DNA of 63,091 nucleotides, counting the filler. It is 7 parts of 7 records of this genome, joined end to end, with 100 filler letters (N's around TTAATTAATTAA, not from the genome) between each part and the next. Parts side by side here need not be neighbours in the genome. Positions count along the whole stretch, not along the records: positions 26,584 to 37,992 come from SRR20825014_24; 6 more parts are not named here. One strand, 5' to 3'. The position numbers were made by a program, and so were the translations under genes. Below are positions 8,031 to 63,091 of the stretch, piece after piece (the stretch's first letter is position 1; each line of letters begins with the position of its first letter). The notes under the pieces are model-generated. The model did no database searches. It saw only the letters and a program-made list of their open reading frames with translations, and was not told where the DNA came from.

Positions 8031-9830
8031 CTATTTGCAAGGCAAACCGAGCAAACCGCCAACAGTGCATACCAGCCCCGGAATCAAACCCTCTTCAGGG
8101 TTCAGGATATTTTCCAGAGCGGTGATCAATCCCGGAGCTTCGCCATTGTCAGGATCGCCCAGCAGCAATGCGGTCAAGCCTTGCTCGAGCTGCCCTTCAA
8201 CCAGCAGCGCCTGCACGGTATCGGCCAGGGTGCTGTCGTTCTCGAGCAAGTCGCCCAGCGTGTCCACAAGATCCTGCTGCTCAAGACCCAGCCCGGACAA
8301 GGCGCCGCCGTCTTCAAGAAGAAGATCCACAATCCCTTGCTGCTCATCAGTACCCACCAGGCAAATGGTGCCCAGAGGTGCCTGACAGTTCGGGTTGTTT
8401 TGTGGCTCGATCAGCAACGCTTCAAGCAAACCGGTTACACCGTCTTCGCCCAGCAGCCCTTCAAGACCGGCACCGCCGTTCTCGTCGCCCATCAGCAACT
8501 CAGTAACGATTGTTTGTAAGCCACCGTTACCTTCGTCGTCACCCAGGATCAGGGTTTGCAGACCTTCCTGCAGGTTGCCTTCCAGGAACAGACCTTCCAG
8601 CACAGAGGCCAGAGAACCGTCATCATTTTGCAGCAGGTCGACCAAACGATCCGTCAGCGCATCTGCGCCACCGATATTGGACGCGATGGGTGCCAGAGGG
8701 CCTGTTTCAGGATCCAGCAACACATCAACCAGACCGCCGTTGTGATCATCACCACCCAACACACAAATGTTGGACACTGGCGTAGAGCAGTTTTCCAGGT
8801 CCAGCACATCGTTGGTGGTTTCGAAGTTGATCACCACGCTTTCAGCCAGCGGATCCGCATTCGGGTTTTCAGCAGAGACACCACTCGCATCGACGGTCAA
8901 CTGGTAGTCGGAGCTTTCCTGCAAACCTTCGTCAGGAGTGAACGTTACCGTCATACCGTCTTCAGACAGTGCGCAGGTGCCGGCTACGGTTTCTTCTGCA
9001 ACGCCGCCATCGTCCAGTTTCTCAAGCACGATAACCGCATCATCACCTTCACAATCGAGTGTCGCTTCATCGATAGGCTGATTGAAGGTCACAGTCGGCT
9101 TCACACTGGCGCCAACGGCATCGCCATCTTCAGGATCGCTGGCTACCACTTCCAGGAAGTTGCTCAGACCGGTCTCGAAGTTGAACTCCTGTTCCGTCAC
9201 CGGATCGCCGTTACCATCAACCAGCGGCTCGCCATTTTCATCGGTAAAGATCAGATACTTAGGATCAAAACCTGGCTGGGCACAGGCTTGCGCTTCAATA
9301 CCACCAATTTCGCTGGCGTTGATGTAGAAGACATAGCTGGTGGACGCCATCAGGTGAGGGGAAGCGGGGGCAAAGGTTGCCTCATTACCCGTCACTGCCG
9401 GCGTCAACGCCACCGAGTCACCGCCCAGGGTTTCCAGACCAATAAAGGCACTGTTTTCCAAGCTGGTCAGGTTCGGTACGTGAGAGAACGTGGCCTGGAT
9501 CAGGGAGCCAATGGACACATTGGTTGCGCCATCAGCCGGGATCACCGAGCCAATATCAACGGTAAAGTGCTGCTCTGGATCTTCACAAAAATCTTCAGGG
9601 CAAGCATCGCCAATGCCATCACCATCAGAGTCCGCTTGATCCGCGTTCGGTACGGTAGGACAGTTATCGGTACTGTCAGGTACACCATCATTATCCTGGT
9701 CCGGCTGATTTCCAACCGGGTTATTGCCGCCACCATTGGAACCACTGCTATCGGCACCACAACCGGCGAGCCCTGCACCCAGGAAACCTGCCAGCGCTAG
9801 CGCCAGCAGTGTTTTCATCTGCTTGTTCAT
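8031..9830 (-). CDS. Lipoprotein with one TSP3 repeat, two Ig-like (Big_5-type) domains and a duplicated Leu/Gly/acidic C-terminal region
   Basis: Lipobox LAGC; DNCP...GDAC; P.DGA..V...I...FS and F.P...L..ST.Y motifs occur twice; the C-terminal C..P...IC(V/L).G.D...G.VD.LL unit is repeated. Confidence 0.8.
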
Positions 9831-16401: not shown

Positions 16402-16501
16402 NNNNNNNNNNNNNNNNNNNNNNNNNNNNNNNNNNNNNNNNNNNNTTAATTAATTAANNNNNNNNNNNNNNNNNNNNNNNNNNNNNNNNNNNNNNNNNNN
16501 N
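16402..16501. other. Artificial contig spacer (N-run/TTAATTAATTAA/N-run); also at 20657-20756, 26484-26583, 37993-38092, 49884-49983 and 60574-60673
   Basis: Identical 100-nt linker with stops in all six frames; composition changes abruptly across each one. Confidence 0.99.
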
Positions 16502-17004
16502 AGGAAGGATTGTATAAAATCGACCACATCGGGAGCATTGGGACCCTTCCTGGACGTAGAGGATACGTCGTGTTGTTTGTTAGTAGATAATCCTGTAGTA
16601 GCAGTAGTAAGTCTGGAGGGGGTACTGGGGTATTTAGTGGTACGAGGGGTGAGGGGGGATCCAGGGAGTGGGGGGCCAATGAGTCGTATCTCGGCATCAT
16701 TGTTAAACACGTCATCGGGGAAGGTGCTCTTGATCACACTAAGGATGCGGTGCTCTTTGAGGGCCCTGAGGCGTGCCTTATCGGTAAGCTCCGAGGTGGG
16801 CTGGGTGCTTGTGGCCATATTTTCCGATAGTAGATCAAATAACCGCCTTCTCTCATCTTCCTCGACTATCATCTCCTCCGCACGTCTCTCTAGTTCGTTG
16901 AGCTTCTCCTCGTCCATGACATAGACATCATTGGTAGCAGGCTGATGGTGTGATCCACCACCTCCCCAACGTACCTTGGAGGAGCCTTGCACTTCGTTAT
17001 ACAT
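16502..17004 (-). CDS. Eukaryotic hypothetical protein, 3'-truncated
   Basis: ATG at 17004, open to the contig edge; charged helix followed by a low-complexity S/T/P region. Confidence 0.6.
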
Positions 17005-17258
17005 TTAATAATAATAAATATAACGAAGTCGACGTTGAATGGAAATGTGTAACGGGCCTTGAATCAATAGAATGTAAGTTGAAAGTGGGGGATTATTAAA
17101 ATGTGCAAACCCATTAAAGTAGCATTTGAAAACAAGACCGCATAACACGCCAACAAAAAGGAGAGAATTTTGAGAGAGGGATTGTGTAGCTAATGTGTTT
17201 CGTTGTTGTTGTTTACTTACCTATATATTGTGTGTTTTTTTTTTGTCTAGTAGCCTTC

Positions 17259-20147
17259 TTACGATGAGAACTCGTTGTCGAGGAATCCACGCTGGGCGTC
17301 CCTCTTACGTGCCTCCTGTGAGGATCCCTCCGCCTCAGCCTTCACCTCATCTCCACTGTTATTACCGTGGATGTATAGCTGGGTGGGAGACACGAACATG
17401 GTCTTGGACTTGAGTTCGCGGTACTTTTTGTACAGGTCAGCGCTGGTGGATTCAATACGGCCGTAGTCGATAAGGGACTGCATAGCACGGGTCTGGCCAG
17501 AGGGGTTACGGACCTTAACCTCAACGGTAGGCCAGAACTCGGGGCCAAGGGTAGCCTTGCGGGCCTCGGCCAGCACCTCCTGCATCTTCATATTGCCGTA
17601 ATTTTGATTATCGGCACGATCCTCGAAGCGATCGCTATCCAACATAACATTGTCCATGCCGACCTTATCCCCAGCCACAACTCGCAATCTCCTCTCGGTC
17701 TGCATATTACCATAGGCGGCGGTGCCCTCGTGGTTGAGGACACGGAGGTCGCTAAGGCGCATTTTGATGGAGACGTTACGGTGGTGGATATCCTGCATAC
17801 GCTGGTACCAACCCTGTGGGTCGTAGCGCTTGTACTGCTGCACGTCGTACACCTCGGACTGACCTACCTCCACTGGGACATTCTGATGCTTAGCCTCAGA
17901 GGACACCTCTCCTAGCCTTCCGCGGAGGTTCCTCTTCAGCACCGACTGGGACGATTGGGGGACGTAGTTAAGACGAAGTAGGATGTTGAGAGCATTGGAC
18001 ATGATGGTTAGATTGCCCTTGGGGTCCTCGGGGGTGGGAGGCTCATCGGCGACGATTCCTTGGTTTACCCAGTTCATGTTCTCTCTTGAGACCTGATGGA
18101 GTGACTGGCGGAGTACCTCCTCCGTAACCGCAGGGGCCTGAGGTGTGCCCAGTGCTGCCTCATCGGTGGTGGGGGCATCCTTGGTCATAGCATGTAGCTT
18201 ACCGACCACATCGACGCCACAATCCTCGAGGATCTCGAGAGTTGCGTCCAATGTGCTGGGACTACGGAGATTCTGATCAATGGTGCTGCGGATACGACGC
18301 TGCTCCACCTTACGGCTCTGGCGTTGGGAGACGATGCCCATCATGGCGGTCTTGACGGCCTCGTTGAGGATGGAGGTGCTGTTGGGGAGCGTGTAGGCGG
18401 AGGGCATCTTGATCTTGCTAGCGGCGTCGGCATCGGCGGCATCCTCCTTCGAGGCTACGACCCTAAGGTAGGCGTTGATGGCCTGTGCGCTCTCCTTGAC
18501 CAGCTTAGAAGCGTCCTCGGGACGTGCGCAGAGATCGTCGACCCTGAAGAGAATTTCGCAGAACTCGGCATGGTACCCCGCCCAACCCTTATCCGGCAGG
18601 ACCTTGAAGTGATCAATATTTGTTAGCCCGAACGCATTTGTGAAGGTGGATGCGGTATCCTGCTCGGTTTTAGCGTGCTCACCAACTGTGAGACAGAACG
18701 CCCTAGCAGCGTCCTCGTCCTTGAGGAGGTTTGCCAAATGACCGACTTCCCTACGAAGGATGTCACCCGACATGTGAGCCGATGTGGCTACCATCTCCAC
18801 CGCAGAGGCCATCTCACGATGACCTGCCTTCTCAAGGGCCTTCTTGAGCTTCATTGCCGACTCGTAGTCACTGCATAGCGCATCAGTGGAACTGATGACG
18901 AACTCCCTACGCCTTTCCATGCTAATTCCGTAAAGGGGGTTGACGCTCTCAAGTGTCATGGACTGATTACGTACATCGGCCAAGGAGCCAGTGGCACCCG
19001 CAGCGGCGGCAGTGGCGCTTGAGAGAGAGATGGCGGAGAGGATGAGGTAGATGGCGACGGCGGGGGTTACAGCGGGGGCAGTACGGCCGTGGTTCTTCAT
19101 CCACTCAAGTTTTGTCAGGAGCACCTCGTCGCTACCGATGATCTTATCGTGATTGGCCTCGATGTGAGCGAGGAGGCACTTCCACACGCCATTACCGCCA
19201 TCGAGGATGTTCCTCAATGCGGCCCTACTTTGGGCATCCGATCCACCACAGCATGGCTGCATGATGTGCTCATCTACTAGGGAGTTACGACGATCGAGGA
19301 CAGCTCTGGTGATGACGTCGATAATATCGGTGAACTCCTCGGGGACCTCATCAGATGCATCCGCAACGGCGCCATCGGATCCAGCAGCCGAGTTCATAAT
19401 CTCGTGAGCGACCTTGACACACCCATCCCGACACTTTCCAATATCCCGGAGGAAAGCATTGGGGTCGAACAGATTCAGGGACACCTTAGAGAAGGCGTCG
19501 GTGGCCTTCTTCCATGAGGCACATGCAACGTCCACGGATGGGTTTCCAATGGACATACACACCTCCTTAATACCGTCAGTAGTGAAGGCCTTCATGCGCT
19601 TCTCGGCATCAGCGTGTTTGGGGAGTGGCAGCTCGATCTTGAGGTGTTCGTTGATGTAGAGGCCGAGGACAGTAGTGTGGGTAACATTGGTGGGGGAGGC
19701 ACGGGATTGGGTTCCCTCGGAGTAGGAGGTCTCCTCCAGCCATGCAGCTATCTTACGAGTGCTGCCTGGTAGCTGCTCCACGTCGTCCTTGGTGAGATGT
19801 AGGGTGTGGGAGGCACCGTTGGAGTCGCTGGATAGGACAGAACTGGTGGGGTCCTTTAGGGGCATGTTGGGGAGGGTGTGGACATAGGGGTCCTTATCAC
19901 TGGTACCCTGACCACGACCTGCACCACTGACAAAGAAGTCTGCAGCAGGAGCGGAGGGCTTGTAGCGAGAGAAGGGGTTATTGAACCCTGGCTCCATGGA
20001 CTGGAGGCCACCGCCCTGGGTGAGGGTGGTGAGGTCGGGGCGTTGGACATGGGAGCGGGTAGCAGCCACCTTAATAATAGATGGCGATGAGCCAGCGGCC
20101 ATGGTGGAGCCTGCAACCACGCACTGCTGTGAGTATCCACGGATCAT
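17259..20147 (-). CDS. Large intronless eukaryotic protein of about 962 aa, possibly mitochondrially targeted (kinetoplastid-like)
   Basis: Long ORF; the MIRGYSQ... start is preceded by AG and a polypyrimidine tract; the N-terminus is Ser/Ala/Arg-rich and lacks acidic residues; no domain recognised. Confidence 0.75.
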   Translation of the reverse strand: MIRGYSQQCVVAGSTMAAGSSPSIIKVAATRSHVQRPDLTTLTQGGGLQSMEPGFNNPFSRYKPSAPAADFFVSGAGRGQGTSDKDPYVHTLPNMPLKDPTSSVLSSDSNGASHTLHLTKDDVEQLPGSTRKIAAWLEETSYSEGTQSRASPTNVTHTTVLGLYINEHLKIELPLPKHADAEKRMKAFTTDGIKEVCMSIGNPSVDVACASWKKATDAFSKVSLNLFDPNAFLRDIGKCRDGCVKVAHEIMNSAAGSDGAVADASDEVPEEFTDIIDVITRAVLDRRNSLVDEHIMQPCCGGSDAQSRAALRNILDGGNGVWKCLLAHIEANHDKIIGSDEVLLTKLEWMKNHGRTAPAVTPAVAIYLILSAISLSSATAAAAGATGSLADVRNQSMTLESVNPLYGISMERRREFVISSTDALCSDYESAMKLKKALEKAGHREMASAVEMVATSAHMSGDILRREVGHLANLLKDEDAARAFCLTVGEHAKTEQDTASTFTNAFGLTNIDHFKVLPDKGWAGYHAEFCEILFRVDDLCARPEDASKLVKESAQAINAYLRVVASKEDAADADAASKIKMPSAYTLPNSTSILNEAVKTAMMGIVSQRQSRKVEQRRIRSTIDQNLRSPSTLDATLEILEDCGVDVVGKLHAMTKDAPTTDEAALGTPQAPAVTEEVLRQSLHQVSRENMNWVNQGIVADEPPTPEDPKGNLTIMSNALNILLRLNYVPQSSQSVLKRNLRGRLGEVSSEAKHQNVPVEVGQSEVYDVQQYKRYDPQGWYQRMQDIHHRNVSIKMRLSDLRVLNHEGTAAYGNMQTERRLRVVAGDKVGMDNVMLDSDRFEDRADNQNYGNMKMQEVLAEARKATLGPEFWPTVEVKVRNPSGQTRAMQSLIDYGRIESTSADLYKKYRELKSKTMFVSPTQLYIHGNNSGDEVKAEAEGSSQEARKRDAQRGFLDNEFSS

Positions 20148-20235
20148 TTCTAATTTATTATTTTGAAAATAGAAGCGCGGGGTCCTAACTTTGAAAAGAG
20201 GTGAGTTAGAGGGGAAAGGAATAGCAGAGGTGGTG
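20148..20235 (-). promoter_or_regulatory. Putative polypyrimidine tract and AG trans-splice acceptor
   Basis: Minus strand ctctgctattcctttcccctctaactcacctcttttc ... ttagaaATG; a similar tract (cccctctctcaaaattctctccttttt) lies near 17155-17180, upstream of the next gene. Confidence 0.5.
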
Positions 20236-20756
20236 ATAAATTCAAAAAAGACATTGTTGTGTAACAATGTCAAGCGATGGTTGCGATAATTTTGTGTTTG
20301 TGTGACAAGGGTAATAATACGCAACTACAGTTGAATACAATCATGGTGGTGGTGGGGTCCTCTCTCATCATGGATGTTTACAATTTTAAAGTCGATTCGA
20401 TTGACGACAACAAAGATATAAGCAAACACCAATCATGTAGAAAGGAGAGTGAAGTGGAAGAGGTAATGTGGGGAGAGTACAGTAGTAGAAAGGGTACCAG
20501 TGATATAACGGCGCGAGGTGGTGCTGACCTTCATAGTGATGAGGGCAAAAAAATATATAAAAGTGTGGGGAAATCGATGGGGTGGTGTTTTTTTTACAAC
20601 AGCACCTGCCCTGCTAACAATGTCAACCTCATCCAGTAAGGAGTGACGATGATATCNNNNNNNNNNNNNNNNNNNNNNNNNNNNNNNNNNNNNNNNNNNN
20701 TTAATTAATTAANNNNNNNNNNNNNNNNNNNNNNNNNNNNNNNNNNNNNNNNNNNN

Positions 20757-26483: not shown

Positions 26484-26589
26484 NNNNNNNNNNNNNNNNN
26501 NNNNNNNNNNNNNNNNNNNNNNNNNNNTTAATTAATTAANNNNNNNNNNNNNNNNNNNNNNNNNNNNNNNNNNNNNNNNNNNNGAGAAA

Positions 26590-26609
26590 TTTTCCCGACG
26601 GGAAGTTTC
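26590..26609 (+). repeat. Left terminal inverted repeat of the AT-rich contig
   Basis: ttttcccgacgggaagtttc is the exact reverse complement of 37973-37992. Confidence 0.92.
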
Positions 26610-26739
26610 ACGTATATCTTACGTACATAAATTTTATGCGTAACTTACAGAAGACATGCCGGAATATATTTACATTACATGTATATACACGTACATAGTA
26701 TGTAAGTAAATAATGTAACATCATACATCGTACGTTTGC

Positions 26740-29700
26740 GGGTATATACTTTATCGTTGTTGTGGTTTTGCATACATGCATAAATTACACCTACTCAGGA
26801 AAGGTGTACATGTATCATATATACACATTATAACCTACACTCTTTTATTAGTTTAATGTGTACTGTCTTATCAAGTATACTACCCCTGTGGGCACCTTTC
26901 CAAACATCCCCCTGTCAGCAATGAAGTATACTCCGCTTACGGTCAGACATGTAACATATTTCGGGGTGCTCCCACAGAAATGTACTTGACCACATCACCA
27001 CTACAAGGAATAACCGTAATGATATTTCTGACATGCACGGTATACTTATAAGTACTCGTGCATACCCTAGGAGTTTTGTTTTTACTTGTTGTGTGGTGTT
27101 AAGCACATCCTCCCGCACCGTTACATGGAAAGGTGTATGCACAGTAGGTATATAACACCTTACACGCGACATGTAATGCTGTGTTCCGCGCAAAACCCCG
27201 GTATGTGTAAAACGTAATATTATGTTGGAACACCTATTTTTTCTAATTGTAACGTACCGTGCCACATATGTATTAGTTACGTATAGCTAGTTTGTTGTTG
27301 TTGTACGTAGCTGATACAATTGCGGTAAATCCTGGAAAGGTGTACCTGGTAACAACCTACGCGGAGTGTGCTATAATAACATTACTGATAATATGTATAC
27401 TACACGTTCGTAATATTATGTGAACAACCATGTGAGTATGTTAGGTGTACGGTCGCGTGCAACATACTCATACCTATAGGAATACCCGGGTGTACTTACG
27501 TATCGTATTAACTTATAATTTTCATCCGTTGTTTTGTTTTGGTTTTGTGTATAATAATATCTGTGTCTCGGGAAAGGTGTGTATCATTACCGATGTATAT
27601 ATGTGTACCCTATTGTTACGAACCCCTGTACGCAGTAGATAAGATTACGTAATCCCGTCGGGTGGGGTGTAAGTAACTGCAGTTCTTTGCGAGATTGCGT
27701 GTATCGCCTCGTACGTACTGTATTATCTTTACTTGTGGCAAGTTATATAAAATTAAAAAACACCTTTCCGAGTAACACTTGTAACAAGCTTTTATAAAAC
27801 ACAACAAACTTAACAAAAAAATTTGTATGTGAATCATGTACAACTTGTATCCGCCTACAGTGCTTACACAGTAAATAACGGAATAACGGCCCGTGTATTA
27901 CAATACCTGTGGGATATTACGTTAAATTAAAATTAGACCTGGCTTATATTTCTGTAAGTTACGTCCGCTTACATGTATGTATGTACATATTTGTAGGTGC
28001 ACGCTATCAATCGATACGTATACTGGAGCGGTGTTTACACAATACGTTGTGGGTTTACCGGGGGCAGTACACTCGTATAATCACATACACAACTTCATCA
28101 TACGACCGCGTGTACGTGTACCGTTATATCACAGGTGCTACCGCGGAGTTGTATACGTAATACGTTAAACATTCATCATGTTTGTAATGCTGTGTTTTGT
28201 TTTGTATACGTATACCTACATGCTGCATTTTATAGGAAAGGTGAATACTTATACGAAATGTACTGATCCGCATATTGTGTTATATGTTGTTTATTAATTG
28301 GTAGGTTTTTTCTGCTGGTGGATAACATTTAACATAAGGAAAGGTGTGCATGTACGCAGTGCAATAACCCACGTAAGATGTAGTTTAGTTTGGCTTTGTA
28401 TAGTATTACTTTAAAAAAAACTAAACACGGAAAGGTGTGTACTACATGCGCACACTACACGGACATACGTAAAGGTATAATTCCAAGTACAAGTTGGATA
28501 CGTAACATACTACGTAACCGAAGTTACATATATTTCTGGGAGGGGTATACGAATCCGGATCTTATAAAAAATAAAACCCGCTAGTATTATCTGACAGTAC
28601 ACGGGTAGATTAAAACTACGTAGGCTAATCCCATCGTGTATTACGTAATGATAATATCCGCGTATAACAGCATACGTAATAATGGTACGCCCTAAATAGA
28701 TTACGTTCAGATAGGAACATCTACGTGAAACTACGTAGTAGACGTTACCGTGCATGTTACTGATACGTTGTTAGCTTAATACTATGTGTGTTTGTTTTCT
28801 CGCGGCAGCGCATTACACTATATTTAACATGTACATGCTGGAAAGGTGTAAACATGTCGTGAAGATGTATTTTAATATGCACTTTTAATACGTTAATAAC
28901 GTACCTGTACGTAAAGCGGGCGTATGTATGTCATGCACGGTACGTTGTCATTATTACATGTTGTGCACGATAGTGTACGTATATAATTACACCTACAACG
29001 TAGGGAAAGGTGCAGTTAATAACATTATATAATTTGTTACTACTCCGCGTGGTGGTTATGTGTTTCTGTATGTAGTGACTGCATGCACTCCCTGGCCTGA
29101 CATTGTGCACCCACTGGTAAAGGATGTACTTTCATAATTTTTGGTTGTTGCGTGTACTTGTGTAGTCATAAACGCTTTAGGAAAGGTGTACGTACATCCC
29201 CATATATGTATGTGGTTACACATCCGCGGAAGGAACCACCCATGTTTTGTAATGATAAGTACACACCTTTCCAATGCTCGCGGTCTACATCAGAAAACAT
29301 ATCCCATACACAAATACAAGTAACATTTCTCACAGTGCATGTGTTGTATTTTTGGCAAGGTTCGTGTATTACTATTTGTCATATAACAGACGTATGTCAT
29401 TACAAAATTTACGGGTATTCAACGTATTACAATGTAACAAGCATTAGTGACTTACCCCGTGTTGTAAGTATGCGTATCCTGTTTATACGTACGTGTAGCA
29501 GTAGTACACCTACACTACCTCAGGTATACTGGTGTTATATAAAGTACATTTTTTACGGGGAGAAGCTCCCTAATATAGTTAAGGACGTTATGTCTTACCC
29601 CGCATGTACATAATATACACGTAGACACCTTTCCATGTAGTACAGGTAAGGTTCGGATTACGTATCTCATACACAAATAATAAAATAAATTAATTTTTAA

Positions 29701-32700
29701 CGACTGTACGTAAAAGTAGTACACATTGTATACGTCGCAGGACTGTGTATAATCCACGACAAAACATTACGCGACATAATATTCGGGGATGGACAGACCT
29801 GGAGAAGGTATGCCATACCAGCACGTATTAAATACGCGAGATGTACTACGTTTACATGTCTATAGAACTATTACGTGCAGGTACTATCAAGACCATGTAC
29901 ACACCTTTCCACAACGGCCTGGTGTGCATGGTATATACACATCCCAAAATAATAATGTACTACGTAAAATATAGACACACATAATAACTGTATGTCGTAG
30001 GAACAACGCTAATCGTACACATTGTTTTTTCAAATCGGAGAACACCTATTACAAGAGAGGTTATATAATATATGCACCGTATACACAACACTGCACGGCA
30101 GGCGATTTCTTTCCGTGTAAGTTGTTGTTGTTGTTCTATAATTACGTGTGCGTATTAAGCTTTATTGGAAAGGTGTACCCGCGTACAAACGCTACCCCAG
30201 TATACATGTATACATGTTCCTTGTAATACTCAACCATAAATAATTATTTTTAATTTTTTGTGGGAAGGGACTAACCATATTACACTACCCGGAAAGGTGT
30301 ATGAGTGCGCTTATGGGATGTGACGGGATTCACCCCGTAAATACATTAAAATCGGATTTGTGTAATACACATATAATAAAATACCGGTATGCAGTATTTG
30401 TAAGTACGTGGTACATACACTTTTTTATGTTTTGTGGGTGTATACCAATAACACATGGTGTTAACGCTGATGCCGGAAAGGTACATACACGTATCGTAAT
30501 CTTGTATATGGCATAACCCACGAATGTGTAATAACATATACCTGTATGCGTACACTGCTACACCTTTCCGGTAAGTAAAAACATCCCCATCTAGTATACT
30601 GCTACGCAATAAAATAAACGTAAATCTATGTACCGCGCAGTACGATTAATTCTCCATCTGTAGGTAGCTGAGATCATGTTCTGCATGTTTTACATTTAAT
30701 ACTCCTCCGTGTACACGCATACCTGTGGGGGGGCACACCTGTCCAGGAAGACTTACTACTGGGTATAGCATCATCCCAACCACAAAAAGTAAATGAAGTA
30801 TCATAGTTTACACCTGGGTAACATGTTGTTATTCCGTGTAAGTGCATCACATAATACGTCCTTTTATTTACGTGGTATATGTATATATATATATACGAGT
30901 ACATTACACGGATACGCGTAAAATGAAAGTAGTATAATAATACTATTGCCCGATACGCTACACTGTTGCTATCCTTAAACAGGTTATTATTAATTTATTT
31001 TATTTATACTAGACATGTACTTTTTGGAATCCTACCCTGGAAAGGTGTTTTTTATATGTTCACTCTAAAATAGCAGACTGTGTGTAAGTATATATTGACA
31101 CAGTATATAACTATACTAACAGCACTACACGATCACCAACAAGGCGTGACGCCACGTAGTGAGGGTAAGATATATTACGTGTGCAACGTAAGGAAAAAGT
31201 AACTTACATCTTACAAAATACACGGATTATAATATACCTGTATGACAGAAAACACCTATTGTGTAACTTTTGTGTTTTGTTCGTTTTTATTGTTTTTTAA
31301 TATCACACTATAACCCGGGAAAGGTGTATTCACATCCGGTGTTGTATGCTACGATCGCAGTACATGTAAACCAATACGCACGTAGTATATGTAACAGCGT
31401 AGTGTTGTTGTTTATACGCGTGTAGCCTAGTGCACGGCCGGCATGTTGTTTCAGATGAAACGCCCCGGACGGACATATCGTAACCTTTAACTGGTAAGTG
31501 CATGTAGCAATACTTAAACTCTATACAGTAAGTATATGTACACTGTACAACCTATCAAGGGTTAATACATGGTCTGGGTAAGCAGGTTCATATTAACAGT
31601 GTATACCGAGATGTATTCTACACGTGATTTTGTTTTGTTGTTGTAATCATTGCTGACGTATTGGTACAGTGTCCTAGGAAAGGTGTAACGCGTGAGGATG
31701 CATCACCACAGATTACGTCCTACACGTGTATAGAATATAGCTGTAAAACTAACCCGTTCCCGTACGTGGTACAACCTTCATAACATAATGCCGTCAGGCG
31801 TGTAATATGTACATGGACATACATTTACTTTTTTGTTTGTTTTTGTATATGTAACCCCACTCAGTATTACATCCCACTGGAAAGGTGTTGTATCACTACA
31901 CAATACGTGTATACGTAGTTTTCGTGTTATAACCGTATCACCGTAACCCCTCGTAAAAACGTATATAAAATACATGTAAGTACACTTGGTTGTTTAGTCT
32001 TTCCGGAGAGTTACCTGTTGCGGTAAGGCCCTCCTGAGAAAAAAAAACACACCATGAACTGTATACATGTATGTTACACACGCTTACACAGTAACTGTAC
32101 AACCCACTCATAATCGTTTATGTACTGGTTTAATAACCACACCTTTCCTATACGCGGTAAACGTTGATATATCCTATACAAAACATAAACAAATAAAAGT
32201 TATAACAAACCTTAATGGTGAAGGCATGTTACCCTATACATGTGCACATGGTGACGTATATAAAACATAATGCTACATTACATGTATGGCACATCGGTAA
32301 AATCAGTTACAATGGTCGTACACGTGTACTTACACGTATATGTACATAGCATCGTGTATGGTTATGCATGTACGGGGATTAAAGTATACTACACGCATTA
32401 CGAGATTAATAAAATTAACATATACGTAAAGTTATATTTTCTTTTTTATTTTTTTGTGTGCGTGTAATATTAATGTAGTTTACCCCGGAAAGGTGTGTAC
32501 GTTGATGATGATACTGTGTACCTAGTATAACACCTTTCCGTGGGTATGTAGTAACTGTATTTACCATTAAACGTCAACTCACATGGATGAACCCCGTAAG
32601 CCTTATCCCGTGTATTTTCATACGTAGTAATATTTGTACATGGAATATATTTACCGTTACGGACGTAGTACGTGCACCACCGTATATATGTCCCCGGGTA

Positions 32701-35700
32701 CACCTTACACATAGGGTTTAATATGTGTACGGTACGTGTTAATTACAAAAGGCGTATGTATCGTATTATTACTAAGTTGTACACCATATGTATAGTACGT
32801 TAAACATTACATACTTTGTTGTAAATTTTTAATACTGGTAACATTTCATACACGCTGGAAAGGTGATCCGACTTAAAAGTTTCAGATTTATGGTTGCTTT
32901 ACGTACATGGTATGTCTTACACAGGGTGTAAGTACACGTACTTAAAAATAAAGTAAACACCAGATACTAAATATGTAACCGCTATCCCATAGGTTTGTAT
33001 TAACTACGATCCCGGTTTTTTTTGTTGCAGTATGTAACAGTGTTGTTGGCCTAACCAGTAGGAAAGGTGTGGTATATACGCGAGGCTTATCTGATAGTAA
33101 CACATTGCATAACATACGTTTAGTTGCATTAATCCTATACGGGTGGGGTATAAAACGTGCCCGGTACCACCTACCAGCAAGACGTACCGTTTTTATGTAC
33201 CTCGTGGATGACGTTAATAGTTTATATGTTTTTGTGTATGGTGTGTATGTGTATTACCACGTAGCATATACTAAGGAAAGGTGTGTACTCGCATAGTTAT
33301 ATCCATAGTTGACTTAGCGGTATGTATTACATACTCCCCGGGTAGTGCATAACAAATACATATTGAATTGCAGTTACTTTGTCGGTGTTATTTTTTGATG
33401 TGTACGTACTTAATATAACATACTAGGAAAGGTGTAATGGTTGTATATGTAATTAATGATTACTCCTGGAGGATATACACATACACTAGAAATCCATATA
33501 GGAGTGTACAACACACGGTGTATATCTTACCGTCTATAGGCTTACGTACGGGGTAGTATACACACAATAAAAACGGTGTAACAGCCCGGTAGTACGTAGG
33601 TTGGTTACCCTATAAACATACATACCCTGTATTTGAAGTACATTATATTAGACGTTGTAACTTTCCGGTTATATACACGTATGGTATAACATAAATCCGT
33701 AATGAATATTTGTAATGCTTTCCAGGTGGTACTGTTGTGCATAAATGGCATTTTTGGAAATGCTCCCCACACCTTTCCTAGCAAAACTATAAAATACGGT
33801 ATAAAAAATCTGCAACAAAATGAAGCCATCTATACACGCTGCTTGTACATGTACGTGCAACTATCCGGTAAAGACAGGCAACATCTGTCCGAATGGCTAT
33901 ATGATTGCGTTGTGTGTTGGCACACCTTTCCGGGGTAATTCCTGAATGTTTGTGTATATGCTACGCATAATATTAGGCACAGTAACGTGCAAGGTATGTT
34001 CCATTTACACAGCGGGTATTGCTTGCTATGCGGCGTGTAACATGTTACCAGTATACATGTCTTTACGCACGGGGGGGTGTGCACATACACCAGTGAGGTT
34101 ATTACGTTCTCTGTAGGAACGACATGTTACATTTTATACCGGGGTGTATACCACGACCGGATGTGGTTTTACGGGAAAGGTGTTGTGCACGATTTATGTT
34201 GGCAAGTACTATGTTAACCGTATTACTGGTATTTGTTTATTGTTATGTGAGAATTGTATATTCACTTTTCCCGGAAAGGTGTATTCCGTGCATGCATCGT
34301 AACACATTATGGCTATTGTGGAGGGCTGCCCCCGGGATTACGGTATGTATTTATATGCGTGCGGTGTGTACCTTATGCCTACGTGTGGTGTGTTTTTTTG
34401 TATTTACAACTGGTGTAATACATACATCCTGGAAAGGTGTATTACACGTTAATGGAAACGTTTTGTGTAAACCGGGATTAGTACTGTATACACAGGTATG
34501 TTGTAACTTGTATCCGTTACATGTATGCTATAAGAGTACTTAACGTAGCGCGGTGATTACTACCGGTTATACGGGGGTTATACACCTTTCCAGGATGTAT
34601 GCGGTTTATCCCCTTATAGCGCAAAACGAAAACTAAACTAAATCAGTATAATGTAAAACTTGCTGAACAACGCATATCTAATAGTGATGTGTAAACGTCA
34701 TACCATGTCTGTGTATGCACTGTGTCGCATGTGGTCTCTACAACATATCGAGTAGTACTACCCCTGAAAGTCATTACATCTCGGGGACCATATAGGTAAT
34801 TTTACGTATATATAGCCCCATGTGATACACCCTAGTACGCTTACGGTGATACTTCTAACGAGTACGGGGTAACTATACGTAACTATACGACCGTGTATTG
34901 CACATCGTGTGAAGGCCATAATGTAAACGTACTGTTACATGTATTACTGTTTTTGTTTGGTGCAGTACTATAACAGTATGAGTTTAACAGGAGCGGTGTA
35001 GGTGTAAGTACACTACCCTATGTAATGGCTCTTACACACCTTTCCGGTAAAATGCATGTAGTTGCGTCTACACCAAAAACTATAAAATAACAATTAACTT
35101 CCGGTGACCGTCTATCCGTGGGATACACTTCCCTGTTAGATCTTACACAAGCATATATTGCATACATATGCAACACGGTTTTCCCAGGTATGTTTAGTTG
35201 TGGTTCTGCGTATATGGCTTGTAAAGTACAAAACACACATACGTATGTATTAAGTGTAACGGATTACACCTTTCCAGTGGGAGGGGCTATGTCTTACGTG
35301 GTATGTTATCCTTCAAAAAAATGAAACTTAATCTGTACACAGCAGATACCTGTATAAAGGTTTATCCTGTAAATGGCAACTATCCCCCGGGTGGCTTACG
35401 TCATTACATGTGTGCATGTAGGGGAGTACCATACAACCTCGGAAAGGTGTACACACACAGGGGGTGACACACGCACAGCAAACACAGAAATTGCTGGTCG
35501 TCGTAAGACACGTACTGGTGAGGACGTAATTTACATATGTGGTAGGGTCGTTGTCATTATCTAGTACATGTGTGGAAGCTTGTATACACAATCCGTAGGA
35601 ACAATCCTGTAGTATACATTTATCTCCCCGGGAAAAAACACCTTTCCCGTATATTGATAATACTGAGTACATCGTTACACCTCACCATCAAAAAAATTAT

Positions 35701-37890
35701 ATGTGGGTATTAAACATGTCGTTTTGGGTAATATGTCAACATGACCCTGGTAAACACCTTTCCAGGGGATTGTTATTATACGTCACCTGTAGTCATACAA
35801 AACACAAGAAACATGTATACTAATTTATTGTATTTACATGCAACAAGTATGTTTACGTTAATAGCACACAACGTAATATCCGTTGTAAGCAGGTAATGCA
35901 CGCGGTATTAATACAGTATTAGTTGCACACGTAGCAATGGATAATAACATACTGGTCGCATATACAGATAGGTTACACCTTTCCTAAACAGTGTTGATGT
36001 ATAAAGCCCTACAAAAAAACAACAAATATAAATTTGTAAGCGCTCATAAAAGTATACCACTACTGTACCCCGCATTAACTACGTACAAAGCATTACACAT
36101 TGTTGGTGGGAGTCTGGTTTTACTTTACGTTTTTTGGTGTTGTGTTATACGTGTATACTTCGATTACGCGGGAAAGGTGTACTTTATTCATGTCAAGCAG
36201 TATGCATAATATAATTATAACCCAACAGGCCACGCACCTTTCCTGATAAATGTAACGTATGTAACCTACAAGAATCCTTCAAAATAACAAAATCAAATTT
36301 ATATATGGTTATAGTGAGAACGCGGTAACGTTAACATTAGGTTGTTATACATATACGAAACACACATATTACGGGCCTGCGTAGTTCACGCGCGGTATCT
36401 TCCACGTCTGTAACACATGCTCGGCTATGTATTAACGGACTGTTGTATACTGTAATTCCTATAGATACAGTACATATTACTTAACTATACTTTTTTGGTA
36501 AGGCGCTCCTCACGGAAAAACCATGCATCTAAAATTCCACGGGATCGCGTACGTGTAAACCCGCGTATATACGTGCATGTGAATAAATAAGTACGTACAT
36601 AAACATATACACCTTTCCTATATTAAACGATGTAGTATGTTACGACTAACAAACAACAACAAAATAAGCAAGCTTACAAGTGGTAATACTTTACTACACA
36701 AGGTACGATATGCGTGTCGTGTCATGTACATATATCGTACATCACGTAGTTTGTAGTAGTGTGTAACGGAACCCCACAATAAGGGGATGTACTCATATAC
36801 ATGCACCGGGTATGTAAGCAAGGTTATACTACCCATACTCTACAGTACTGGATCAGGCATTACAGTTATCCTATGTAATGTTTTTATTTTATTTTTCTGC
36901 GAAGCAGGCCTGTCTGTACATACCTACATTTATAGGAAAGGTGTAGTGGTGTTCCGTAACATATATATATATTATATACATCTTTCCTACTATACGAGGA
37001 GATGTGTAACCGCACCATAACAAAACAATAAAAAAAATGGAAACACGTAATAGGTGAGTGTTAACCCGTTTACAATAATATGTTCGTGTAAGTGGGTAAC
37101 AAAAGATATATTCTTGTAATGAAGAAATACATACATAAAAGTTCTGTGATGGTTCACTACATAATACCGTACAGGGTTACACGTACCAGAATAGAACTTG
37201 TTCGTTACATAAGTTATGATTGTCATACGTATAACAGGTTATTGACCATTGTTATTTAAGAAGGACGTCCACCTGATGGAGTAACCTCCACCTTGTGAGC
37301 ATACCTATACATAGCGATATGTTTCTGTAAGACAAGTTTGTTACTGATGTTTATATAGGCGTTGTGTGCACTTGTCATGTAACGTAAGTATTTACCCTTA
37401 CGTTAACAACATACCGGTATGTACCGCACCTTTCCTATGTATGTACGTGATTACCGCCTAACATAATGACACATAAAATACCTATAGTAAAGTGCAGTAC
37501 CCGGTTATGCGCACATGATCAGGATTAATGCCGTTAGCTTGTTACCAACGTTCATGTGTCGCTACCGTACACGGACACGTGCTTATACGTTAGTAACAAA
37601 AAGTTTTATGCCATGTTATTTTTTTGTAATGTGCAAGTAAAGTAGGCTTCGCTTGGAAAGGTATAAGTTAATACTACAGGTATGTGTTCTGTATTGCATG
37701 TATACTACAGGTTGATACCTACCTACGTATACACCTTTCCTATGTTTAACGTAACACACGCATATACGAAAAATCCGGGAAACATAGACTATAATATACG
37801 TTGGGTGTAATGACATGCATACATAAACTTTTTTGATAACAATTTTATGAATATAATATGACCCTATATTGTTACACCGTGGAAAGGTCA
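26740..37890. repeat. Dispersed array of about 50 GGAAAGGTGT/ACACCTTTCC cassettes (putative guide-RNA genes)
   Basis: Manual count of about 50 exact or near-exact copies. Plus strand examples: 26798, 27127, 27334, 27571, 28338, 28429, 30291, 33061, 34431, 36171. Minus strand examples: 27760, 29263, 29901, 32139, 34582, 35975, 37731. Most have a unique T/G tract about 20-35 nt 5' of GGAAAGG. The repeat itself is certain; the gRNA role is inferred. Confidence 0.85.
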
Positions 37891-37914
37891 CATCAACAAG
37901 GTGAGCAATGTTGT

Positions 37915-37992
37915 GAAAACTTCCCGACGAAAAACTTCCCACGAAGTTTGGGAAACTTCCCGCGAAATTCGGGAAACTTCCCGTCGGGAAAA
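37915..37992 (+). repeat. Degenerate tandem GAAACTTCCC repeats, including the right terminal inverted repeat (37973-37992)
   Basis: gaaaacttcccgac-gaaaaacttcccac-gaagtttgg-gaaacttcccgc-gaaattcgg-gaaacttcccgtcgggaaaa. Confidence 0.9.
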
Positions 37993-60573: not shown

Positions 60574-60675
60574 NNNNNNNNNNNNNNNNNNNNNNNNNNN
60601 NNNNNNNNNNNNNNNNNTTAATTAATTAANNNNNNNNNNNNNNNNNNNNNNNNNNNNNNNNNNNNNNNNNNNNAT

Positions 60676-63090: not shown

Positions 63091-63091
63091 G

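Follow-up and report, generated by a model that had tools for sequence, protein, structure and literature searches.

In Trypanoplasma borreli, as far as the account in PMC9679448 describes them, the molecules carrying guide-RNA genes are long, possibly linear, and bounded by inverted repeats, and the genes are distributed over the two strands in no pattern. The same account gives the guide-RNA loci one 9-nt motif (RYAGGCTTT), located 20-40 bp upstream, and the guides a median length of 28 nt with 0.11 G:U pairs per base (PMC9679448). The putative guide genes of Perkinsela are described as having an A- or A/C-rich tract (PMC4669381). The contig presented here resembles the T. borreli molecules, as portrayed in that account, in its repeat termini, single upstream motif, and short tracts, which amounts to a closely parallel layout, but it is smaller and much denser, has another motif, and is without CSB-3. 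None of the 21 contigs of the family considered below contains this 12-mer of kinetoplastid minicircles, which the T. borreli termini also have. The single-motif design had originally been called simpler than that of T. brucei, which is correct, but it is less unprecedented than that comparison suggests, as the T. borreli loci described already carry a single motif (PMC9679448). We consider it likely that the array contig is a member of a multi-copy, non-coding kDNA family of a non-trypanosomatid kinetoplastid, whose units are proposed to be guide-RNA genes, and the indirect tests that were run were all compatible with a kinetoplastid guide-RNA array.

The window is a stretch of 63,091 nucleotides in which seven contigs are joined by N...TTAATTAATTAA...N filler spacers; the features discussed here are collected in Table 1. 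The GC content of the array contig (38.0%) compares with 44.7-63.1% in the six other contigs of the window and with 45-53% in the co-assembled eukaryotic contigs. As had been predicted for this 11.4-kb molecule, no credible ORF was found when it was scanned with translation tables 1, 4, and 11, the longest ORF being 153 aa (table 11) and the longest stop-to-stop frames 170 aa (table 1) and 196 aa (table 4). An Rfam search of the contig returned zero matches at E <= 1, and a tRNA search found none. It is also one complete contig: in run X1, a single 11,480-nt Logan contig covers it entirely with 0 differences, and it was recovered from sequencing runs belonging to five studies. The array contig is a contaminant within a bacterial assembly and is probably one guide-RNA-bearing kDNA molecule, with ends probably truncated within its own terminal repeats.

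The motif GGAAAGGTG occurs in 47 exact copies in the window (27 on the plus and 20 on the minus strand), where 0.41 are expected and the maximum over 100 shuffles was 2. All 47 are confined to the array contig, from 26798 to 37740, with a mean spacing of 238 nt (median 218, range 44-492). Six further copies have one mismatch, and the unit count of 52 is made up of the 47 exact motifs and 5 variants. When the motif is read in the direction CACCTTTCC, the 24-nt segment 26-50 nt downstream has a mean A+C content of 76.2%, compared with 50.0 +/- 1.9% for random sets of 47 positions (z = 13.8); none of 20,000 such sets matched the observed mean. Tracts with at least 75% A+C follow 32 of the 47 motifs, as against 4.2% of random 24-mers, while a clear A/C tract is missing from about 12 of the 52 units. 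The original prediction had described about 50 motif copies on both strands, roughly one per 220 bp, most of them followed by a unique A/C-rich tract, and it holds on both counts; of the sequences it quoted as examples, those given for 32176, 36009, 35795, and 27525 are present at these positions.

Table 1. Coordinates of the array contig, its terminal features and units, and the co-assembled mS35 ORF (positions in the window).
Feature	Position	Strand	Motif	Tract	Remarks
mS35 ORF	17259-20324	-			Kinetoplastid-type mitoribosomal protein, 1021 aa, full-length; separate co-assembled contig 16502-20656
Whole contig	26584-37992	.			11,409 bp, 38.0% GC, non-coding, ~52 oriented units
Terminal inverted repeat, left arm	26590-26609	.			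20 nt, TTTTCCCGACGGGAAGTTTC
Unit 1	26756-26806	-	26798-26806	26756-26770	
Unit 2	26893-26901	+	26893-26901		Motif alone; no clear A/C tract
Unit 3	27073-27135	-	27127-27135	27073-27100	
Unit 4	27290-27342	-	27334-27342	27290-27304	
Unit 5	27528-27579	-	27571-27579	27528-27550	18-nt island common to L042 unit
Unit 6	27761-27821	+	27761-27769	27796-27821	
Unit 7	28179-28243	-	28235-28243	28179-28205	
Unit 8	28276-28346	-	28338-28346	28276-28321	
Unit 9	28379-28437	-	28429-28437	28379-28399	
Unit 10	28785-28848	-	28840-28848	28785-28798	
Unit 11	28959-29012	-	29004-29012	weak	
Unit 12	29138-29188	-	29180-29188	29138-29163	16-nt island common to L038 unit
Unit 13	29264-29319	+	29264-29272	29287-29319	
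Unit 14	29626-29689	+	29626-29634	29671-29689	
Unit 15	29902-29949	+	29902-29910	29937-29949	
Unit 16	30121-30175	-	30167-30175	30121-30135	
Unit 17	30247-30299	-	30291-30299	30247-30264	
Unit 18	30421-30483	-	30475-30483	30421-30441	Variant motif TACCTTTCC
Unit 19	30561-30589	+	30561-30569	weak	
Unit 20	30736-30788	+	30736-30744	30775-30788	Variant motif CACCTGTCC
Unit 21	31021-31047	-	31039-31047		Downstream tract A/T-rich, not A/C-rich
Unit 22	31268-31326	-	31318-31326	31268-31298	L014 and L088 relatives, A-run lengths differ
Unit 23	31624-31685	-	31677-31685	31624-31644	Islands: 20-nt with L014, 18-nt with L020
Unit 24	31829-31887	-	31879-31887	31829-31846	
Unit 25	32140-32198	+	32140-32148	32178-32198	
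Unit 26	32437-32495	-	32487-32495	32437-32465	Back-to-back with unit 27, motif starts 44 nt apart
Unit 27	32531-32587	+	32531-32539		Island ACGTCAACTCACATGGA, ~32571-32587, 17 nt, not A/C-rich, identical in L073 unit
Unit 28	32815-32865	-	32857-32865	short	
Unit 29	33014-33069	-	33061-33069	33014-33049	
Unit 30	33220-33283	-	33275-33283	33220-33252	
Unit 31	33378-33434	-	33426-33434	33378-33403	
Unit 32	33770-33820	+	33770-33778	33803-33820	
Unit 33	33923-33931	+	33923-33931		Motif alone; no clear tract
Unit 34	34141-34182	-	34174-34182	weak	
Unit 35	34227-34281	-	34273-34281	34227-34249	
Unit 36	34383-34439	-	34431-34439	34383-34405	
Unit 37	34583-34642	+	34583-34591	34622-34642	
Unit 38	35037-35093	+	35037-35045	35070-35093	
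Unit 39	35267-35321	+	35267-35275	short	
Unit 40	35409-35449	-	35441-35449	weak	
Unit 41	35639-35696	+	35639-35647	35677-35696	
Unit 42	35755-35813	+	35755-35763	35797-35813	
Unit 43	35976-36026	+	35976-35984	36003-36026	
Unit 44	36115-36179	-	36171-36179	36115-36146	
Unit 45	36235-36297	+	36235-36243	36263-36297	
Unit 46	36610-36671	+	36610-36618	36648-36671	
Unit 47	36879-36943	-	36935-36943	36879-36896	
Unit 48	36979-37037	+	36979-36987	37008-37037	Variant motif CATCTTTCC
Unit 49	37427-37482	+	37427-37435	37453-37482	
Unit 50	37614-37663	-	37655-37663	37614-37627	Variant motif TACCTTTCC
Unit 51	37732-37773	+	37732-37740	37753-37773	
Unit 52	37829-37889	-	37881-37889	weak	Variant motif GACCTTTCC; doubtful unit
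Terminal array	37916-37983	.			AAACTTCCCG-type units, periods 15 and 21; start of sibling-shared repeat terminus
Terminal inverted repeat, right arm	37973-37992	.			Exact reverse complement of 26590-26609

A search for siblings with the same motif and ends, proposed together with the original prediction, found 20 contigs in metagenomes (L034 being a copy of L042) that have the motif and tract geometry of the array contig. Inverted-repeat termini are common to these siblings and their interiors are unique, only the ends being shared. Their GC content is 35-41% and their motif density 1.2-6.2 per kb; several stem from records with names starting TARA_. The left end of the array contig (26586-26609) is identical at 24/24 positions to the termini of L011, L038, and L098. 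Terminal inverted repeats measure 551 bp in L042 (96.7% identity), 292 bp in L077 (87.7%), and 73 bp in L091, and L042 has A/T tracts at a 10-bp phase; the lag-10 autocorrelation is 0.38 there and about 0 in the interior. In run X1, the depth of sibling contigs of 6.9-10.7 kb is 15-46 and that of the array contig 32, whereas the terminal 29-mer that they share reaches a k-mer depth of 2350, about 70x that of any single contig.

When the array contig is pooled with 19 siblings, the motif-tract geometry recurs in 434-440 units. The tract starts 21-38 nt past the motif in 325 of the 440, and its motif-proximal boundary is sharp while the distal one is diffuse. The footprint of a unit was derived from 421 neighbouring motif pairs split by relative orientation: divergent motifs can be just 11 nt apart, convergent ones are separated by at least 147 nt in all but 1 of 104 pairs, and tandem pairs are seldom less than about 81-91 nt apart (3 exceptions in 212). 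Each unit therefore takes up approximately 75-90 nt downstream of the motif and almost nothing upstream.

Among the 440 units, tract sequences of 17-24 nt reappear in units with unrelated flanks. Exact 16-mers are shared by 34 unit pairs versus 8 in the reversed-sequence control, exact 18-mers by 8 versus 1, and 20-mers by 3 versus 0; a local score of at least 17 is reached by 34 pairs versus 6. Of these 34 high-scoring pairs, 33 are formed by units from different contigs, and in 32 the offsets from the motif agree to within 4 nt. The 15-nt flanks of the shared islands are 24.9% identical, as expected at random, and certain islands are not low-complexity. As tract sequences recur while their flanks are unrelated, selection acts on the tract alone. 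Related tracts display no transition excess, with 31 transitions versus 54 transversions at a score of at least 16 (control 8 and 10), many of the pairs counted being low-complexity matches; this speaks against a guide function because G:U-tolerant redundancy would predict such an excess. Stop-codon avoidance in the mRNA sense of the tracts gave no signal above the reversed control. The islands are also shorter than trypanosomatid guides, which span 40-60 nt.

These last properties bear on an alternative that we regard as unlikely, namely that the DNA is kinetoplastid and organellar but its units are something other than U-indel guide genes: the motif could serve replication, recombination, or packaging, or the product could be small RNAs of a different class. 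In one version, a U/G-rich RNA would be made from the opposite strand, read towards the motif. Short islands (17-24 nt), the missing transition excess, and the absence of CSB-3 all suit this explanation, and the spacing would also be compatible with a 3' processing signal downstream of a U/G-rich product. The sharp near and diffuse far tract boundary is, however, what a fixed start and variable length would produce, and the presence of hundreds of distinct tracts, of which a minority recurs under selection, suggests an information library instead of a structural signal. We know of no other RNA class with such properties in kinetoplastid mitochondria. Moreover, the orientation and distance of the motif agree with those of the motif upstream of the T. 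borreli guide loci, as far as these are described.

The only evidence here for the organism of the array is the mS35 contig, and the link to kinetoplastids runs through the co-assembly of this one nuclear contig. The mS35 ORF matches PDB 7ane chain u ('mS35') with an E value of 3e-89 in three aligned stretches spanning the whole chain, and 5/5 of the PDB sequences matched are named mS35, in a comparison set containing no diplonemid mS35. Two kinetoplastid-like nuclear contigs had been proposed originally; this one is confirmed, and the other has no informative match. Co-assembly being the sole taxonomic link, the contig could be a coincidence and the array could derive from a diplonemid, another protist organelle, or a linear plasmid, which we judge quite improbable. 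Besides the absence of CSB-3, the occurrence of several siblings in TARA_ records, which we take to be ocean metagenomes, would favour such a source, since diplonemids are abundant in ocean metagenomes. Diplonemid chromosomes, however, are described as carrying one gene piece each (PMC6792441), whereas the molecules here have unique interiors and some 50 units apiece. The lack of ORFs argues against a plasmid or virus, and the combination of a U/G-rich complement with a T. borreli-like layout is specific to U-indel editing systems. Very improbable, finally, is a nuclear small-RNA cluster or a functionless selfish repeat array: many tiny oriented units do resemble piRNA mini-genes such as the nematode 21U-RNA loci, in which an upstream motif is followed by unique sequence, but discrete 6-12-kb molecules with inverted-repeat ends, the ~70x depth of their terminal 29-mer, the GC difference from the co-assembled eukaryotic contigs (38% versus 45-53%), a motif unlike the nematode one, A/C-rich tracts, and tract sequence kept between contigs despite fully diverged flanks all speak against it.

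The array most likely stems from an unsequenced free-living relative of trypanosomes, in which it would be a mitochondrial guide-RNA chromosome, the host being a contaminant of, or co-cultured with, the bacterium of this assembly. The family consists of multi-copy, non-coding, probably mitochondrial (kinetoplast) DNA molecules of 6-12 kb, each of which has a unique interior between inverted-repeat termini built from short GGGAAA/TTTCCC-type units. On one strand or the other, the interior holds approximately 4-5 putative autonomous mini-genes per kb. Motif, geometry, molecule family, unit footprint, and the conservation confined to tract sequence are direct observations, while transcription, its start point, the mitochondrial location, and the guide function are predicted from them. 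Each mini-gene is made up of three parts. The oriented 8-12-nt element, (A/G)(T/C)A-CACCTTTCC with the core ACCTTTCC, has almost no upstream requirement and most likely serves the mitochondrial RNA polymerase as a promoter or initiation signal. Next come a spacer of about 26 nt that is not conserved and is C-poor in its first 7 nt, and an information tract of some 17-35 nt, which is unique, rich in A/C, and poor in G. Transcribed from a predicted start point, this tract would yield a short guide RNA that forms few G:U pairs. The complement of the tract is U/G-rich, as pan-edited mRNA is, and the guide would specify where U is inserted into or deleted from maxicircle transcripts.

The seven contigs of the window are joined by N...TTAATTAATTAA...N spacers, and the array contig at 26584-37992 (11,409 bp) has 38.0% GC against 44.7-63.1% in the remaining six. 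Five window contigs with 57-63% GC are bacterial in appearance, and long eukaryote-like ORFs are found on 16502-20656 (52.7% GC) and 60674-63091 (44.7% GC). The motif, a short oriented element, takes the form GGAAAGGTG in 47 copies, 27 on the plus and 20 on the minus strand, where 0.41 would be expected in the window, and all 47 lie within the array contig at a mean spacing of 238 nt (median 218, range 44-492). Six more copies carry one mismatch, and the downstream feature is present in four or five of them. Read as CACCTTTCC, the motif is preceded by A in 41 of the 47 copies and followed by an A/C-rich tract: the mean A+C content at +26..+50 is 76.2% over 24 nt, compared with 50.0 +/- 1.9% in random position sets (z = 13.8), a value reached by none of 20,000 such sets. 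At least 75% A+C was observed in 32 of 47 tracts and in 4.2% of random 24-mers, and a clear tract is absent in about 12 of 52 units. The original prediction of a motif array on both strands of this contig, with A/C-rich tracts following the motif, is confirmed, and the example tracts it had picked out are present where it had placed them. It had also seen no credible ORF, and the longest table-11 ORF indeed measures 153 aa, with stop-to-stop maxima of 170 aa (table 1) and 196 aa (table 4); under tables 1 and 4 none of the related molecules described below contains a frame above ~240 aa. Readings under table 6 were discounted, as overlapping frames are then open on both strands and are meaningless here. 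A tRNA search of the array contig yielded none, and an Rfam search gave no match at E <= 1.

The array contig belongs to a family of molecules. A metagenome scan for two motif copies 197-227 nt apart matched at least 116 stretches; among the matches listed, 53 loci that contain four or more motif copies were profiled. Of these 53, 20 were accepted as siblings, again among the matches listed, by criteria that we set ourselves: a GC content of 35-41%, a density of 1.2 motifs per kb or more, and an A+C content of 64% or more at +26..+50. One of the 20, L034, comes from another record and duplicates part of L042 at 99.99%. The largest siblings measure 8.7-12.1 kb and carry 39-58 motif copies. L105, L110, L118, L023, L115, and the remaining loci were left out as ambiguous, tandem arrays, or chance. 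L082 has values within the numeric criteria but is a tandem array; together with L019, L069, and L046 it represents unrelated repeats, which are short tandem arrays of 40-51% GC with 16-32 motif copies and no unit geometry. Since A/C content is among the criteria, the pooled tract profile is partly circular; the tract effect is seen in the window by itself, on the array contig and with no siblings. In an all-against-all BLAST of the siblings the ends are common and the interiors unique. In L042 the unit motif is relaxed to the core ACCTTTCC (28 copies, the full 9-mer in 11 only), and this looser core together with a different terminal sequence indicates that at least two related organisms have such molecules, L042 probably deriving from a different species of the same lineage. 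The nearest genome, G001, gave no match to the array contig. Three genome-contig loci matching the terminal 20-mer were rejected as chance, the motif occurring in none, and the two-motif pattern was found at four loci in viral contigs, none with sibling features.

The array contig was found in runs of five studies in total: complete in three runs of one study, by about half in a run of a second, and as fragments of at least 99% identity in runs of three further studies. In the public sequencing run X1, other contigs of 6.9-10.7 kb (depth 15-46) match the array contig solely at motif or terminal sequences, and the k-mer depth of the terminal 29-mer is 2350 compared with 32 for the array contig. 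We are therefore dealing with a genuine family of stable, multi-copy replicons whose host organism is widespread. Two further runs, X6 and X8, which are presumed to be RNA by guess only, yielded 6 and 4 pieces, respectively, which measure 154-280 nt, have a depth of 2-6, and do not relate consistently to the units. At 32920-33077 an X6 contig (32924-33077) and an X8 contig (32920-33076) nearly coincide; the two runs come from different studies, and their RNA status is guessed. This could be due to chance, locally raised copy number, or a transcript.

Pooling of the window with 19 non-redundant siblings delivered 434-440 units. Their element reads (A/G)(T/C)A-CACCTTTCC: position -1 is A in 87% of units, and position -2 is T in 55% or C in 30%. 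It is followed by a spacer of ~26 nt, whose first 7 nt are depleted in C (4-9% versus 19% background) and which shows no conservation beyond them. In 325 of 440 units the tract, which is A/C-rich and G-poor, begins 21-38 nt past the motif. It has a sharp boundary on the motif side, fades out gradually on the other, and is usually 12-35 nt long. Counted from the motif start, RYAYA is enriched 1.7-1.8-fold over positions 30-39 (5-nt bins of 156 and 142 versus a background of ~85), for which the A/C-rich composition could suffice. An independent measure of the footprint comes from the spacing of neighbors: the smallest distance in divergent pairs (n=105) is 11 nt, only one convergent pair (n=104) lies below 147 nt, and only two tandem pairs (n=212) lie below 81 nt, so that a unit, measured from the motif start, needs ~75-90 nt on the downstream side and hardly any sequence on the upstream side. 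The four neighbor orientations are about equally frequent (105, 104, 96, and 116) and there is no polarity along the molecules, which identifies the motif as one oriented element that stands alone, without a partner copy, in agreement with the single-element cassette that had been proposed.

The tract is under selection, as became evident from a comparison of units with one another in which reversed sequences served as control. Unit pairs with a common 16-mer numbered 34 versus 8 in the control, those with a common 18-mer 8 versus 1, those with a common 20-mer 3 versus 0, and those with a local score of at least 17 numbered 34 versus 6. Of the 34 high-score pairs, 33 join units of different contigs, 32 lie within 4 nt of equal motif offset, and the 15 nt flanking either side of the shared block in the same register show 24.9% identity, as at random. 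A block of 17-24 nt that is kept while the spacer and downstream sequence are random is the signature of a small functional RNA matching another sequence. Over the 440 pooled units the tracts are mostly unique, with recurrent and staggered 16-24-nt islands in excess of the control; some tract families are staggered by 6-10 nt and some vary in A-run length. The tract at 31268-31298, for instance, is related to units of L014 and L088 with differing A-run lengths. If the tracts are guides, such differences would mean different numbers of inserted U at one site, which could reflect strain differences or non-canonical editing. A transition excess among related tracts is absent (31 transitions, 54 transversions), and in a stop-avoidance or open-frame test of the mRNA-sense strand, which was underpowered, the real tracts showed no advantage over the reversed control.

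Features of the array contig, its siblings, and the co-assembled contigs (window unit numbers run along the array contig)
Feature	Location	Strand	Size	Remarks
Terminal inverted repeat	array contig, 26590-26609 and 37973-37992		20 nt	
Short array of AAACTTCCCG-type units	right end of array contig			
Terminal inverted repeat	L042		551 bp	96.7% identity
Terminal inverted repeat	L077		292 bp	87.7% identity
Terminal inverted repeat	L091		73 bp	94.5% identity
Shared island	L061 unit and L037 unit		24-mer	
Shared island	window unit 23 and L014		20-mer	
Shared island	window unit 27 and L073		17-mer	not low-complexity
Accepted siblings	L009, L011, L014, L020, L028, L034, L036, L037, L038, L042			
Accepted siblings	L057, L061, L073, L077, L088, L091, L097, L098, L102, L104			
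ORF, kinetoplastid-type mS35	contig 16502-20656		1021 aa	PDB matches
Second ORF	16450-17004 (contig 16502-20656)	-	184 aa	downstream of mS35 gene; runs into spacer
Open-ended ORF	60742-63090	+	783 aa	S/T/N/I/V-rich, repetitive

The ends of the siblings consist of arrays of GGGAAA/TTTCCC-type units that form terminal inverted repeats, the arms of which are imperfect, arguing against a fold-back assembly artefact. In L042 (8.9 kb) the repeats, in the end regions 1-640 and 8230-8872, are built of TTCCGGAAA-type units. Its terminal repeat contains A/T dinucleotides with a 10-bp phase (autocorrelation at lag 10 of 0.38, compared with ~0 in the interior), reminiscent of the bent DNA in the conserved regions of trypanosomatid minicircles; phasing is weak in the L077 repeat (0.10-0.14), and the ends of the array contig are cut short. 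A consensus search of 21 contigs for CSB-3 gave no exact copy; a 9-nt core is present once, in L061. A 176-nt contig in X1 links 26604 to 37964 with 8 extra letters between them; as the same inverted-repeat units are present at both ends, this join fits a circle or a linear molecule alike. A different terminal repeat, a tandem unit of ~80-85 nt with copies 72-82% identical, is found at 1-280 of L088 and at 4130-4731 of L104, whose ends are without the GGGAAA/TTTCCC array; this repeat could represent another type of end or a block inside the molecule.

The presence of a kinetoplastid in the assembly is indicated by the 1021-aa ORF on contig 16502-20656, which matches the mitoribosomal protein mS35 in PDB entries 7ane, 7aor, 7pua, 6hiv, and 9hny (E 3e-89 to 2e-80), which we take to be Leishmania and Trypanosoma mitoribosomes. 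Three aligned stretches are spread along the entire ~890-aa chain, and at an E threshold of 0.01 mS35 is the sole PDB protein matched. To our knowledge, mS35 of such length is specific to kinetoplastids. Pfam recognized the MRP-S28 domain alone, below the cut-off, and Atlas assigned the ORF with good confidence to a generic mS35 family. Database homologs are metagenome proteins, the best of 90% identity and the others of 34-42%, and the moderate identity to trypanosomatid mS35 suggests a bodonid. The original prediction had counted two kinetoplastid-like contigs in this assembly; this is confirmed for the contig with the mS35 gene, and the other gave no informative match. Its 783-aa ORF, without a Pfam or PDB match, may encode a protein from the same protist, of a surface or repeat type. 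The link between array and kinetoplastid consists of co-assembly only.

Each unit is probably a guide-RNA mini-gene, an interpretation that is well supported by indirect evidence, short of proof. In the mechanism that we propose, the element would attract the mitochondrial RNA polymerase or set its position, and transcription would start near the sharp tract boundary ~26 nt downstream, where the RYAYA enrichment, perhaps only compositional, lies. The A/C-rich tract, as the guiding information, would pair with U/G-rich edited mRNA, using hardly any G:U pairs, and the footprint would leave room for a primary product of ~40-50 nt. The data demonstrate the geometry, the footprint, the molecule family, and selection on the tract, from which transcription, its start site, an organellar location, and mRNA pairing are inferred. 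The guide reading is weakened, or at least not helped, by the missing transition excess and stop-avoidance signal, the shortness of the conserved blocks, the absence of CSB-3, and the units without a tract. We rate the array family as probable guide-RNA-bearing kDNA molecules of the Trypanoplasma borreli type. According to Gerasimov et al. 2022 (PMC9679448), the guide-RNA loci of T. borreli lie on 17 possibly linear contigs of ~70 kb with inverted ScaI-repeat termini; the loci are on both strands and patternless, with RYAGGCTTT 20-40 bp upstream, and the guides have a median of 28 nt, 0.11 G:U pairs per base, and high redundancy. Among the systems compared, T. borreli guide-RNA kDNA is the closest match to the array family, which follows the same logic in a far more compact form. 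In both, the molecules are non-coding and carry a unique interior between termini that are inverted and repetitive, a feature that was tested and found here. A single oriented motif 20-40 bp upstream, on both strands and patternless, is likewise common to them in geometry, but not in motif sequence, which is (A/G)(T/C)ACACCTTTCC in the array family. They also have in common short guides, putative in our case, with few G:U pairs and redundant overlapping coverage. On the other hand, the molecules of the array family measure ~6-12 kb and carry ~4-5 units per kb, whereas the paper reports a mean of 23 high-confidence loci per ~70-kb contig. The motif is nearly invariant here and served as a loose filter there, and the termini consist of GGGAAA/TTTCCC-type 10-nt units with no CSB-3-like 12-mer, whereas the 1-kb ScaI repeats of T. 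borreli contain one.

A trypanosomatid minicircle (a circle of about 0.7-2.5 kb with CSB-1/2/3 in a conserved region) also shares traits with the array family. Judging by the T. brucei account (PMC6868439), the likeness extends to several small autonomous guide genes, putative in our case, in a variable region beside a conserved region, which is of bent DNA there and may be so here, to cassettes of 80-150 bp compared with the unit footprint of ~75-90 nt, and perhaps to a RYAYA-like sequence near the presumed start. The same text describes 1-kb catenated circles with three to four cassettes on one strand, each between paired imperfect 18-bp inverted repeats, whereas our element is single and oriented; it also gives CSB-1, -2, and -3, the last of which is absent from the array family, and 0.4 G:U pairs per base, while putative guides of the array family contain ~5% G. 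At 11.4 kb, without CSB-3 and with an unpaired motif, the array contig is not such a minicircle. Carriers likewise far above 1 kb are found in Table 2 of a 2026 review (PMC12936278), including the Vickermania HL-circles of 15-22 kb, which shows the carrier form to be evolutionarily flexible. The Vickermania-type carriers listed there differ from the array family in being circles with conserved regions in four cassettes at polar positions, with inverted repeats flanking the guide genes and two to five guide loci per molecule, and none of the entries of that table has a comparable organization. In Perkinsela an A- or A/C-rich tract is the sole common trait of candidate guide genes, according to PMC4669381, where contigs average 730 bp and a common flanking motif is lacking, unlike in the array family.

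Among the papers searched, none links this motif to guide RNAs; a Leishmania topoisomerase paper contains both of the motif strings, and variants could be present in supplements (e.g., T. borreli Table S1). The search also returned no description of such arrays for free-living kinetoplastids and no sequence-level account of the minicircles of Bodo caudatus. In work attributed to Hajduk et al. (1986), the kDNA of Bodo (Parabodo) caudatus is said to consist of non-catenated 10-12-kb 'minicircles', which were circles and came without sequence. The likeness to the array family lies in the size class (11.4 kb for the array contig, 6-12 kb for the siblings) and in the bacterivorous, free-living bodonid host, which is presumed in our case.

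Two further candidates fit poorly. A diplonemid mitochondrial chromosome is circular and carries one gene-piece cassette, the rest being a constant region common to a chromosome class, a definition backed by PMC6792441. The array molecules hold ~50 units each and their interiors are unique between siblings, for which reason this candidate is unlikely. Nematode piRNA (21U-RNA) mini-genes form a nuclear chromosomal cluster and combine an upstream 8-nt motif with a 21-nt product starting with U. Here the motif differs, the tract starts with A or C (by the definition used), and the units lie on discrete, multi-copy molecules bounded by inverted repeats, which makes a 21U-RNA cluster unlikely.

The promoters and the initiation and termination signals of guide-RNA genes are called 'obscure' in the abstract of PMC6789859, and only two public nuclear genomes of free-living kinetoplastids are counted in a 2026 preprint (10.64898/2026.09.29.755400). 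Knowledge of guide RNAs comes nearly entirely from parasitic trypanosomatids. With more than 400 natural replicates of a minimal unit and a sharp element at a fixed distance, the array family is suited to dissecting initiation by the mitochondrial RNA polymerase and represents a compact, highly replicated natural system for locating the guide-RNA promoter. It adds a third sequenced data point on the evolution of guide-RNA carriers, after minicircles and the T. borreli molecules, and offers a first look at the kDNA of an uncharacterized free-living kinetoplastid lineage. Such contigs moreover make it possible to recognize bacterial assemblies and metagenome bins that are contaminated by protists, as the occurrence of the array contig in the runs of several studies illustrates. 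Tentatively, and with a confidence that stops a little short of even, we propose an unsequenced kinetoplast architecture of a widespread free-living (probably marine-capable) kinetoplastid: dozens of 6-12-kb, inverted-repeat-bounded, possibly linear mini-chromosomes, each with 25-60 autonomous guide-RNA mini-genes, one nearly invariant 8-12-nt element that would switch on every mini-gene from ~26 nt upstream of the start, and guides of ~17-25 nt of information that are almost G:U-free. If this is true, the element would be the clearest candidate for a guide-RNA promoter so far, and U-indel editing in the host lineage would run on much shorter duplexes than in trypanosomes.
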